Of a stretch of 64,000 nt of DNA, positions 59,148 through 63,595 are shown in pieces. The notes under the pieces were generated by a model, which saw nothing but the letters and a program-made list of their open reading frames with translations, ran no database searches and had not been told where the DNA came from. A program made the translations under genes and the position numbers. Numbering within the stretch: position 1 is the first letter of the stretch; every line of letters begins with the position of its first letter. Location of the stretch: the NCBI GenBank assembly GCA_963664705.1, contig OY761556.1, positions 4,704,001 through 4,768,000 of the forward strand, given 5' to 3'. Source of the stretch: Acidobacteriota bacterium (GTDB lineage Bacteria > Acidobacteriota > UBA6911).

Positions 59148-59529
59148 GTTGGAATACATTCTCCCGCCCTCTCTTCCCTTTTTTGTTGACCCGGTGCCAA
59201 CTGTCGATTTAAATTGTCTATACTGAGATATGTGGTTTCGTATAGGATATCTCGTTAGGAGATGATCCAAACGGGTAAGTTGTCTCAAGGATGAGCAATC
59301 AATTCCCCGGTGTCCCAATGACGTAATTTGGTGACTAATTTTGCAAAGCCAAAATACTGTTATTTCTGATTCAGGAATGTCAGTGGGAGAGCGGCTCCAA
59401 CCGGGGTGGGGTTAGAAGCAAGATATAGGTTGCCGTACGGTTTGGAACATTTTTGTAGAAACAGGTGATCTGCCTCTACGGCAAAAAGATCAAGGCCGCA
59501 AATTCAGTTCTTTTGAGGAGGCGAATTTC

Positions 59530-61347
59530 ATGAGAGCCAGGAAGGTTTGCTTTTTGGTCATTGTTCTGATCGCGGCACTCGCCGCATCGAGTGTGCAGGC
59601 GCAGCAGAAAGCAAAAGCTGCCGTAAAGCCTGCGGTAGAAAAAATTGTCGTGATGAATCCCCGCGGCATACAGCCTGAAATCCGCAAGATTCCCATGGCA
59701 AAGCGTCCGGATACGCTCAATGGCAAGACGGTCTATGTCGTGGATATCAAATATGCGAATACCCGGCCGTTCGTCAATGAACTGATGGCCGCACTGAAGG
59801 CGAAATATCCAAGCACCACCTGGGTGCTGAAGGAAAAACTTGGAATGTACATGGATGATGATCCGAATCTCTGGAAGGAGATAAAGGAAAAGGCATCCGG
59901 AGCCATCGTCCTGGTGGGGCATTGAAGCAGCTGCTCGCCGGCAGTTGTCGGCCATGCAGTGACGCTGGAAAGAATGGGCATCCCCGCAGTACCGATGATC
60001 ACAGCCAGATTCCAGGAGCTTGTGACCACCATCTCCTATAAAAAAGGGATCCCGAACATGCGGATCACCTATACGCCTCATCCCATCACGGACAGACCGG
60101 CCGAGCTTTGCCGGCAGTACGTGCAGGGGAAAGATCCGAACAGCGGCCAGCCGATGCTGGAACAAATCTATGGAGCGCTGACCAAGCCTCTGTCGGTGGA
60201 AGACGCCAAGGCCGGCTTCCTCAAGAGAGATGCGCGCCCGAGGCTGTTGCCCCCGGACACGCCGGAAAACCTGCTGGAATACTTCCACGAACACATCTTC
60301 ACCGATGGCAACCCGATCATTCTCCCGACCGAACAGAAGGTGGCGGAAATGCTGAAAGCCACCAGCCGCAAGCCGGATGAATGGGTCGGACAGATGCGTC
60401 CCTCTCCTCCCCATGAAGCCTGGTACTACACGGTGGAAATGGTCGCCGTGAATGCCGTCATGGCGGGAGCCAAACCGGAATACTTCCCCACGATCCTGGC
60501 GATTGCCTCCAAGGGTTTGACCTCGATGTTCAGTTCGACTTCGTCGTTTGCCCGCATGGTCGTCGTCAACGGCCCGGTGGTGAAGGAAATCGGCATGAAC
60601 ACCAGCATCGGAGCGCTGGGTCCGAACAACCGTGCCAACTCCTCCATCGGCCGCTGCTGGACGCTGATCTCCAAGAACCTCGGCGGATCCGGGAAACCGG
60701 GAGAAACCTACCTGGGCAGCCAGGGGAACCAGTTGAACTACAACAACCTCTGCTTCCCGGAAACGGAAGAAGGGTTGCCGGCAGGATGGAATCCGTTGTC
60801 GGTACAGAAGGGTTTCAAGAAGTCCGACAGCGTGGTCAGCCTGTTCAGCGGCTGGAGCTTCAACGATATCGCCTGGTACTCGCCGCTGCCGCAGCATGAA
60901 GTCATCCGCGGCTGGCTGGAGCATTTCTTTTCGTACGGTACCAGCCAGGCGACTCTCGTTCTCGACCCCATCGTCGCGGCTGACGTGGCGAACATCGGCG
61001 GTTTCTCAACGAAGGAAGCCTTCTCCAAGTGGCTGGCGGAAAAAACAGGAACACCCGGCTGGCTGTACTGGTCAACACACCAGAGAGAGCTGAAGCAGGC
61101 ACAGGATGGAGTAGAACCCTACGCGGGCTGGCTGAAGCAGGGACAGGGTGCGGTAATCCCGGTTTCCCGCTATAACAGGGCTCAGGGCGTTGCCAGGTAT
61201 TCCTCCCGCTCTTCTTTCATTACGCAAAGCGGCAGTGATGCCACCAGTTCGGTTGAAATTGTGGTTACCGGCGGCGGAACGAACACCTTCTGGTCGGGCG
61301 GCGACTTTGGCTATGCGGGCAGCGCGTCCGTGGATCAATGGAGATAG
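59530..61347 (+). CDS. Secreted UGSC-family selenoprotein (Sec at TGA 59923-59925, U-S-S-C)
   Basis: Two ORFs in the same frame separated only by TGA, giving VLVGH-U-SSC-SPAV; SECIS-like hairpin follows; TDGNPIILPT..AVNAVMAG..NRANSSIGR domain. Confidence 0.82.
59931..59959 (+). promoter_or_regulatory. Putative bacterial SECIS element
   Basis: gccggc-AGTT-gtcggc upper stem with loop starting 17 nt after UGA and G at loop position 2; ctgc/gcag lower stem. Confidence 0.68.
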
Positions 61348-61360
61348 GAGGAACGATCAC

Positions 61361-61933
61361 ATGAAAAACAGATTAATGATAGCTGCAATTGCGCTGTTGG
61401 GATTGATGGTCGCGGTAGGCCTCCAGCCTGTCATGGCGCAGGAAAACACGCCCACGAATCCGGTTGCCGTAAAGGTGCCGCTGAAATCGATGGTCGAACT
61501 CGGGTCGGTGTATACCAACATCTATGACATCACGATCACGGTACTTGAAACTGTTCGAGGCAATGCAGCGCTTGAACAGCTCAAGGCGGCGGATCCGAAT
61601 GTCAAAGCGCCGGCAGCGGGCTTTGATTACGTGCTGGCACGCGTCAAGTTCGAACTCAAGGGGCGCTATGTCAGCGACAACCTGTCGTTTGATCTCGGAA
61701 CCGAACCGCTGCAGTGGGTTTTGCTGTCGGGCGCGGATCTGACGGAATATGACCGGGTATCACTGACGGTTCCCAAGCCTGCGCTGGCAGGCATTGTGAA
61801 ACCCGCCGGTTCGATGGAAGGCTGGGTGGGCTTTGCCGTTTCTCAGAAAGACGCCAAGCCGGTGATGGTATTTGATCCGGATACCGGCGGCGCCACCGGG
61901 CGCGGCAAAACTCTCTTCTTCAAAATGTATTAG
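61361..61933 (+). CDS. Secreted hypothetical protein (DUF4352-like Ig fold)
   Basis: AGGAGG RBS; signal peptide; EGWVGFAV motif. Confidence 0.75.
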   Translation: MKNRLMIAAIALLGLMVAVGLQPVMAQENTPTNPVAVKVPLKSMVELGSVYTNIYDITITVLETVRGNAALEQLKAADPNVKAPAAGFDYVLARVKFELKGRYVSDNLSFDLGTEPLQWVLLSGADLTEYDRVSLTVPKPALAGIVKPAGSMEGWVGFAVSQKDAKPVMVFDPDTGGATGRGKTLFFKMY

Positions 61934-61947
61934 TTGCTGAAACAAAG

Positions 61948-61982
61948 AGGTTCGTGGCCAATAAAACATTGGCCACGAACCT
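61948..61982. terminator. Strong hairpin between convergent genes
   Basis: aggttcgtggccaat-aaaac-attggccacgaacct, a 15-bp perfect stem. Confidence 0.65.
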
Positions 61983-62078: not shown

Positions 62079-63029
62079 TCAGATAACCACTCCGGCAAGG
62101 ACTCTTGCGGATTCCAGCGATGTTCGATCAAGCTGCGGGTCGATCTGCAAAACCCGCGGATTCTGCCGCTGCTCTCGAGGCACCTCCCCCCGCACGCCCG
62201 GACCGATGAGGTAGTAATCATACTCGGAGCTGCCGAACAGCTTATTCAGGTTCGGTATCTTTTTGATTGAGCTTGAATGAATGCTGACATCTGAAGATGT
62301 CACGAGGTTTCGTATCTGCTCCACCATGTAGTGAACCCTGTGTACAGGCTGTGGCTGGTGGAGAAGCAATACGGATGAGTTGGAACGTATCTCCGCCAGC
62401 AAATGGATTGTTTGAGCAGAAGCGCGGACTTCAACAGGAATAATCTCAGCCTTTTTGCCGGACACCATCGAACGGGCATATTCGTACAAAATGTGATTGA
62501 CGATTATTTTGGGAGTTGCATGACCCCTGGCGACGCTCTCCTTTAATGCCCGGAAGGTCAGCCCTTTAACCGGCACTTTCCATAGCTGCGATATTTCCGC
62601 GGCAGCCTGGGTTGCGATTTCCTCATGAATATCCACAAAAGAAATGAGCGGAGCTTTGCGTTCGCTCTCCTGGGCATGCCGGCTGAGGTACCGGGCAAAA
62701 GCTGTCGGCGATATGCCCATCTGACGGGCTCGGGCCGTGATCTTCTCACTCAGCTTAAAACAGCTTTCATTGATGGATCGCGGAGATTCTGTTGCGGTCT
62801 TGATCACGCTTCCTTTGCCGCGCATCAGAGCAATCAGACCGGATCTTCTCAAGGCCAGGTAAGCCTTGTGTATCTGGCTGTGGTGAATGCCCGTCTGTTT
62901 CTCAATATCACGAATTGAAGGCAAGGTATCGCCGTTCCGAAGGATTCCCATCATTACGGCAAACTTGATCTGTTCCTCGATCTGGTTGACTACGGGAGTA
63001 GGACTATTTTTCTCGATGTAAAATTCCAT
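62079..63029 (-). CDS. GntR family transcriptional regulator (YtrA-like HTH, long C-domain)
   Basis: QIEEQIK..GDTLPSIRDI..KAYLALRRSG..RGKGS; AGGAGG RBS. Confidence 0.88.
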   Translation of the reverse strand: MEFYIEKNSPTPVVNQIEEQIKFAVMMGILRNGDTLPSIRDIEKQTGIHHSQIHKAYLALRRSGLIALMRGKGSVIKTATESPRSINESCFKLSEKITARARQMGISPTAFARYLSRHAQESERKAPLISFVDIHEEIATQAAAEISQLWKVPVKGLTFRALKESVARGHATPKIIVNHILYEYARSMVSGKKAEIIPVEVRASAQTIHLLAEIRSNSSVLLLHQPQPVHRVHYMVEQIRNLVTSSDVSIHSSSIKKIPNLNKLFGSSEYDYYLIGPGVRGEVPREQRQNPRVLQIDPQLDRTSLESARVLAGVVI

Positions 63030-63082
63030 CCTTCGCCTCCTGAGATAACTGCCCCCAATTATGAACTTACTCCCTCTAAATT

Positions 63083-63595
63083 CCAGATTGCAGATTTCAG
63101 ATTCCAGACTAAGGCCGGGTAAATAGTAACCCAGGCCTATTTCCATGGATGCGTCTTTGCGTGCGCACTTGCCCGCACGATGGTTTCCATCCGCATGGAA
63201 TCATACTTGGAATTTGCTATCCGGGAGCAATTTTCCCAGGCCCTCCCAGATTGCAGATTTCAGATTCCAGACTAAGGCCGGGTAAATAGTAACCCAGGCC
63301 TATTTCCATGGATGCGTCTTTGCGTGCGCACTTGCCCGCACGATGGTTTCCATCCGCATGGAATCATACTTGGAATTTGCAATCCGGGAGCAATTTTCCC
63401 AAGCCCTCCCAGATTGCAGATTTCAAGATTCCAGATTGCAGATTCCAGATTTCAGACTAAGACTGGGGACATAGTAGCCCCGGCCTATTTCCATGGATGC
63501 TTCTTTGCGTGCGCACTTGCCCGCACGATGGTTTCCATCCGCATGGAATCATACTTGGAATTTGCTATCCGGGAGCAATTTTCCCAAGCCCTCCC
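63083..63595. repeat. Tandem array of three ~163-bp structured units
   Basis: Units start at 63083, 63246 and 63409. They are near-identical, and the third carries extra AGATT(C/G/T)C heptamers. Confidence 0.92.

Follow-up and report, generated by a model that had tools for sequence, protein, structure and literature searches.

UGSC proteins have, to our knowledge, been without an assigned function since 2007. They are among the commonest environmental selenoproteins, with 255 selenocysteine (Sec) sequences in GOS, and the 2008 report suggests a thioredoxin-like fold for them and shows, in Fig. S1A, a fusion of UGSC to a domain called Unknown_1 (PMC2398784). GrdB (PF07355) and PrdB work in cytoplasmic or membrane-associated Grd and Prd complexes. 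Glycine reductase is fed by thioredoxin (PMC13188914). A periplasm-associated multiheme selenoenzyme is described in PMC13510729, so exported selenoenzymes are not unique. As for numbers, PMC9312934 and PMC13188914 give 39, 57 and 63 genes for the record whole selenoproteomes, and in the Olavius dataset selenoprotein families have 2-12 genes each, with one UGSC. Here we compare with these systems a gene from an uncultured acidobacterium. Taken alone, this gene is nothing unusual within its family, and both that family and the fusion have been described before; what is new is the predicted export, a genus-wide expansion, a reassignment of the fold, and the partners. No report of this expansion or of a link between UGSC and GrdB/PrdB was found in the literature, with most subscription papers outside the scope of the search.

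The gene lies in a stretch of 64,000 nucleotides that was analysed as a whole (the window), from a genome assembled as a single contig of 6.9 Mb with a contamination estimate of 6.18%. Two open reading frames, 59530-59925 and 59959-61347, are called here with table 11. As the original prediction held, they are one frame split by TGA: translation with TGA as U yields 605 codons with a single internal TGA and the context ...IVLVGH-U-SSC-SPAVV, that is, H-U-S-S-C (Table 1). The Pfam match to PF24696 crosses the junction (105.8 bits against a cut-off of 25, profile positions 2-160 of 172), which bears out the claim of a single fused UGSC-family selenoprotein, although the fusion itself was already published in 2008. 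PF24696 across the TGA, U-x-x-C and the Unknown_1 block are shared with that family and fusion. Unlike the family motif U-G-S-C, however, the motif here is U-S-S-C after His. NCBIfam NF041046, an equivalog, gives 69.5 bits (E 2.9e-19), under its curated cut-off of 125, so that by sequence the protein is homologous to that family but falls outside the equivalog. A predicted signal peptide, a coupled DUF4352-like partner and a predicted fold that is not thioredoxin-like set it further apart. The closest named relatives are from uncultured Acidobacteriota MAGs (up to 89% identity); those of Desulfobacteraceae, Gammaproteobacteria and Chloroflexota are more distant. The N-terminus reads MRARK-VCFLVIVLIAALAASS-VQA, with a best 10-residue hydropathy of 3.63. 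Basic residues, a hydrophobic core and VQA, judged by eye, make it a predicted Sec-type signal, and the export proposed earlier is upheld as a prediction.

Table 1. Features of the locus, in positions of the window
Feature	Positions	Strand	Basis or remark
Shine-Dalgarno GAGGAGG	59515..59521	+	sequence; 8 nt before ATG
One CDS of 605 aa with predicted signal peptide, Sec domain (UGSC, GrdB/PrdB-like) and Unknown_1 domain	59530..61347	+	
Predicted Sec-type signal peptide, aa 1-24	59530..59601	+	cleavage presumed after VQA, by eye
UGSC domain PF24696, aa 41-199, predicted flavodoxin-like	59650..60126	+	Pfam, model
In-frame TGA, putative selenocysteine U132	59923..59925	+	frame, paralogues, homologues
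Cys135, putative resolving cysteine of U-S-S-C	59932..59934	+	in 31/31 Sec paralogues
Candidate SECIS upper stem-loop GCCGGC-AGUU-GUCGGC	59937..59952	+	possible lower-stem extension 59926-59966
C-terminal Unknown_1 domain, about 370 aa, without conserved Cys	60235..61344	+	confident model
Shine-Dalgarno AGGAGG overlapping TAG stop	61346..61351	+	sequence
Partner gene for 190 aa without Cys; signal peptide predicted; likeness to DUF4352 as a lead only	61361..61933	+	
16-bp hairpin between convergent units, terminator-like; U-run on minus strand	61948..61982	.	
GntR-family regulator, convergent neighbour, no link shown	62079..63146	-	

This genome has 31 paralogues that encode Sec, the present gene included, and the expansion spans the genus. 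Both tblastn and PF24696 give 35 copies in this genome. One TGA stands at the aligned site in 31 of them, with Cys three residues on in every case; in the remaining four the site holds Met, Leu, Asn or Ser. Identity to the query ranges from 25 to 88%, and a quick tree separates several old clades. Export is predicted, by a heuristic count, for most of the 31: the N-terminal 10-residue hydropathy is at least 2.1 in 27; of the rest, one shows a twin-arginine motif and three show neither feature. All 24 same-genus genomes searched have 9-45 matches each, so the pattern is not confined to one genome with 6.18% contamination; such kin genomes are not independent, however, and the expansion therefore counts as one lineage-level event. 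Among the matches in the three genomes listed in full, 33/45, 17/27 and 6/11 contain the TGA. In other families of the class, two of 16 genomes have a match, one each, and in a sample of the phylum 15 of 200 genomes match at E <=1e-8 with 1-2 copies each, compared with 16 for this genome at that cut-off. The 31 Sec copies contrast likewise with the one UGSC of the Olavius dataset.

Two parts of the window, 60238-60937 and 61438-61837, are 95-100% identical in DNA to paralogue copies at 2633983, 3995510 and 6758420; the same three copies are 70-88% identical to the query in the N-terminal domain and 56-86% at the gene end. Such patchy identity may reflect gene conversion or recombination between copies. 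Other architectures were seen as well, namely Cys-type UGSC proteins bearing two C-domains and tails that resemble surface anchors, and tandem C-domain proteins without a UGSC domain.

We regard decoding of the TGA as Sec as very probable. The Sec machinery for which the original prediction advised looking is present twice over: profile searches find two selA, two selB and two selD above cut-off, and two tRNAs match Rfam tRNA-Sec (70.6 bits). One set is scattered; the second forms a cluster at 3.072-3.079 Mb, next to genes for corrinoid methyltransferases. Besides the 31 paralogues, related loci of other genomes have TGA at the same site in 20 of 21 cases, the 21st being without the N-domain; 17 of these 20 have U-x-x-C and three are without the second Cys. 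Since the site is conserved in paralogues and outside loci, and since PF24696 spans the junction, the TGA is above chance. Homologues were also expected to show Cys at this position, and 33 of 73 full-length representatives do (GH-C-STC among them), the other 40, likewise without TGA, having neither Cys nor Sec. The 73 derive from 150 representatives of a profile search, of which 79 have at least 60 residues before the site, after six tandem C-domain rows that were out of register had been dropped. Contigs from the sequencing runs of one sample carry the same TGA; as this is likely the source sample, they add no independent support. The sequencing-run search listed no RNA runs carrying the sequence.

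If the TGA were instead a real stop, the locus would encode two separate proteins or a pseudogene. This would agree with the annotation of the best 120 database homologues (word search), all given as 410-460 aa and starting past the TGA, but gene callers typically begin proteins after Sec codons. Moreover, a stop at this point would cut one predicted domain in two and leave the signal peptide on the first half only. It would also have to be kept in 31 paralogues and 20 outside loci, and within 25 codons past the TGA none of the 31 has a start accompanied by a Shine-Dalgarno-like motif. We find this reading scarcely credible. It is very improbable, too, that the TGA specifies Cys or Trp through a suppressor or a second SelB/tRNA system. 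The two sel sets, three tRNA-Cys and a third TCA-anticodon ARAGORN call of 72 nt leave some room for it; against it, both full-length TCA tRNAs match Rfam tRNA-Sec, both selA and both selD copies score over their cut-offs, the acceptor stem of the 72-nt call is broken, and TGA is a normal stop codon in this genome, as it ends seven of the 35 paralogues.

Several observations can be added around Sec decoding. The 72-nt call (1625651-1625722, minus strand) is probably a tRNA remnant or a false call. Three Chloroflexota homologous loci read W-U-S-N-A or W-U-S-G-A and have neither a second Cys nor a signal peptide. The second selA-selB-selD-selC set (3.067-3.079 Mb in its wider extent) includes a corrinoid protein, two MtaA-like methyltransferases, an activase and an ArsM-like gene that has an in-frame TGA, and its SelD bears a C-terminal AhpD-like domain. 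A noisy hexamer screen for other Sec genes gave 239 candidates, 46 after filtering, which are mostly gene junctions. Possible further in-frame Sec codons, as candidates only, are at 4666877 (-), 3078482 (-), 6396412 (-) and 6757229 (+); a rhodanese-like YCT-U-PNE context is an example from this screen.

The hairpin after the UGA has a 6-bp stem and an AGUU loop that begins 17 nt past the UGA, with G and then U at loop positions 2-3. It fits the bacterial SECIS model as given in PMC13188914, the criterion being a G-containing loop on a hairpin placed 16-37 nt past the UGA. The SECIS geometry of the original prediction was thus seen correctly, but the single hairpin carries no significance of its own (dinucleotide shuffles give z -0.2 to -1.6, synonymous-codon shuffles p=0.06). 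The signal emerges from the family: 21 of the 31 Sec paralogues pass a strict SECIS model against 12.4 expected from synonymous shuffles, the same model being passed by 505 of 1988 control windows, and the mean MFE z is -0.73, where 280 control windows average -0.23 (p=0.002). With the register fixed, covariation was not above shuffles (68.8% paired against 68.2), and the register of the stem shifts among subfamilies.

The original prediction, like the 2008 suggestion, called the Sec domain thioredoxin-like. An AlphaFold2 model of the mature read-through chain (pLDDT 91.2, pTM 0.90) has strand and helix alternating five times in the N-domain, with strands before and after U within one domain and U-x-x-C opening the helix that follows strand 3. 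On this model the Sec domain is predicted to be flavodoxin-like; a thioredoxin fold would have a beta-alpha-beta / beta-beta-alpha topology with the motif after strand 1, and similarity to thioredoxin profiles. HHalign of the N-domain profile against 20 GrdB/PrdB-family Sec domains, drawn from a PF07355 search of the phylum, gives 96.7% (P 3.8e-10) over 73 columns with U-x-x-C in register, against 0.7% for thioredoxins (a small control of five thioredoxin-like sequences of this genome), 0.4 for receivers, 0.3 for SDR and 1.0 for B12-binding domains. NCBIfam GrdF and GrdB match the same stretch weakly (E 0.014 and 0.039). Because of the GrdB/PrdB profile match and the order of elements in the model, the thioredoxin-like fold of 2008 (PMC2398784) is not supported. 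Thioredoxin-fold selenoproteins (Trx-, Prx- and DsbA-like) do share U-x-x-C at a helix N-terminus, but their topology is different from the predicted one. PDB sequence searches gave nothing significant, Foldseek with the full model gave one weak match, a flavodiiron protein (E 8.5e-4), and the VIA-align list for the N-domain consists of flavodoxin-like and receiver-like domains, with no thioredoxins among the 50 rows listed, which by itself excludes nothing.

With GrdB and PrdB the domain thus shares a homologous strand-U-x-x-C-helix-ExxGIP-strand core and, by analogy, a likely Sec nucleophile with thiol-based re-reduction. Unlike them, it has no PF07355 match, is fused to an unrelated large domain and is predicted to be exported. 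PF07355 has no match anywhere in this genome, and the same search finds it in 77 of 301 phylum genomes. GrdA and GrdE/PrdA also had no match in the genome, in a search whose controls were likewise silent. In the phylum, short genes for PrdB-like U-P-x-C selenoproteins occur commonly; none was found in the four genomes of this genus that the same search included.

The literature's label implies a different role, in which the protein does contain Sec and is exported, but serves as a general oxidoreductase of thiol-disulfide, persulfide or sulfoxide type in Dsb/Msr-like periplasmic housekeeping. We consider this unlikely: the profile match and the repeated beta-alpha order with the motif after strand 3 speak against it, and it would leave 31 copies that have diverged so far, each with an extra domain of 370 aa, unexplained.

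Another suggestion can be made from the top VIA-align row. Chain H of 8s7v, from the MCR activation complex, aligns with the N-domain over 139 residues (Z 11.3, rmsd 4.6), 1.5 above the next row, and from its size we infer that it is Mmp7. Cluster-loaded proteins are usually exported by Tat. According to PMC12176620, Mmp7's McrC-like domain binds an [8Fe-9S-C] cluster via His and Cys. The query could then be a periplasmic metal-binding, cluster-binding or ligand-sensing protein, with His131, Sec132 and Cys135 as ligands and redox catalysis secondary, and the 40 homologues without Cys or Sec at the site would agree with this. The identity to chain H is only 14%, however, with no sequence-level match; His precedes U in only 16 of the 31 Sec paralogues (others have Asp or Gly), and the hydrophobic N-termini of the 27 are Sec-type-like, with one twin-arginine. 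Further, nifB is absent in 24 of the 27 UGSC-bearing genomes searched, and that of this genome sits in a nif cluster. As nifB is so rarely present, and here belongs to that cluster, this role is lowered in our estimate and we hold it to be quite improbable.

The nitrogenase cluster, at 4.623-4.633 Mb, is apparently complete. Judged by eye from the sequences, it has nifH, D, K, E, N and B, a nifV-like gene and one for P-II; for nifB the name comes from TIGR01290. At 4.92 Mb a short NifB-like radical SAM gene stands beside two further genes, which from their motifs we take to be a YedE-like membrane protein and a class V aminotransferase-like protein. This cluster is possibly for selenium or sulfur handling.

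The C-domain, modelled alone, has a pLDDT of 92.6. By sequence it is Unknown_1: the Unknown_1 block in the supplement of PMC2398784 matches residues ~306-357 by eye. Foldseek gave no match at E <=0.001, and the best VIA-align Z is 5.0 over ~76 residues; a new fold is not proven by this. The Atlas search with the C-domain led to unnamed clusters. The conserved residues include D259, E303, N308, N370, R375 and E411, and no Cys. The family profile is matched by 9,614 representatives at E <=0.001. With its ~370 aa, its wide spread and no clear relative among solved structures, the domain is well suited for structure determination.

The genes around the locus were considered next to its relatives elsewhere. 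The 190-aa gene starts 13 nt downstream, and its Shine-Dalgarno sequence overlies the query stop, which suggests translational coupling. Eight of its nine copies in the genome adjoin a paralogue, and it is present in 11 of 21 related loci; the Atlas ties it loosely to DUF4352, as a lead only. The secreted downstream gene of the original prediction has thus become a conserved, coupled, DUF4352-like partner, likely an accessory subunit. The GntR neighbour, by contrast, is adjacent as was claimed but does not belong to the operon, since it is convergent on the opposite strand. Elsewhere UGSC is often stand-alone, of ~180 aa and without a signal peptide, and 13 of 14 fetched loci with stand-alone UGSC have a C-domain gene. 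AhpC-TSA/Redoxin N-domains (Pfam), with D-C-x-T-C motifs, occur in five of the eight long partners scanned, and two more have a CxxC motif without a Pfam match. Thioredoxin-fold proteins are thus found as partner domains in split UGSC systems, and in one split locus (L092) a thioredoxin reductase-like gene is directly upstream of UGSC. These partners echo the Trx-fed glycine reductase. There is no thioredoxin-like gene beside the present copy; the genome has one DsbD.

The neighbours of the paralogues vary (esterases, transporters, Mo/W enzymes and TonB-type receptors, from 109 of 207 neighbouring ORFs scanned). Around 29 paralogue clusters there are eight TonB receptors against 2.0 expected from random cluster placement, five AFOR against 1.2 and four MFS transporters against 0.9. 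As the 11 families tested were chosen after the neighbours had been seen, and the null is random placement, the p-values of this enrichment are overstated. The enrichment fits loci of substrate use. In the genome as a whole, tblastn finds a large set of Mo/W enzymes, with ~24 loci of xanthine-dehydrogenase type and 22 of aldehyde:ferredoxin-oxidoreductase type.

What, then, might such a protein do? We give about an even chance to an exported, single-chain selenol reductase of the GrdB/PrdB type, likely cofactor-free, whose paralogues would take different substrates. Beyond gene, motif, fold and partners, the steps are drawn by analogy with Grd and Prd. SelB would read the hairpin and insert Sec132, and the chain would leave through the Sec translocon in unfolded form. 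Sitting where the helix after strand 3 begins, the selenolate would attack a small substrate bound by Unknown_1, and this domain would play the role that GrdE/PrdA plays for GrdB/PrdB. Cys135 would free the product through an Se-S bond, and a thioredoxin-fold protein would re-reduce the Se-S form; in cytoplasmic split forms the latter would be fused to the large subunit, and in exported forms re-reduction would likely be fed by DsbD. The 31 Sec paralogues would then likely broaden the range of substrates, through reductive cleavage of C-N, C-S, S-S or S-O bonds in organic compounds outside the cytoplasm.

The strongest fact against such a mechanism is that 40 of the 73 full-length non-TGA representatives have no Cys at the site. 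These homologues may be non-catalytic subunits or binding proteins. Taken with the four paralogues that have neither Cys nor Sec and the three Chloroflexota loci without a second Cys, they mean that redox function is not universal in the family. Also counted against a GrdB/PrdB-type enzyme are the span of the profile match, only 73 columns, and the top structural match of the N-domain, which is not a reductase.

Whatever the reaction is, 31 Sec copies of one family in a closed genome approach the record whole selenoproteomes, and the expansion is hidden by gene callers, which cut every copy. Moving UGSC from "thioredoxin-like" to the GrdB/PrdB clan, with a thioredoxin-like partner, gives it a testable reaction type. 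We suggest tentatively, and with some doubt about the whole, that in one uncultured genus of Acidobacteriota a genome has up to about 30 extracytoplasmic selenoenzymes of GrdB/PrdB type, every one of them joined to a substrate-binding domain of unsolved fold and, in the present genome, served by doubled Sec machinery. If correct, this would be the largest expansion of a single selenoprotein family in a prokaryote, and these proteins would form a new class of periplasmic, thiol-driven enzymes for the reductive cleavage of organic substrates.
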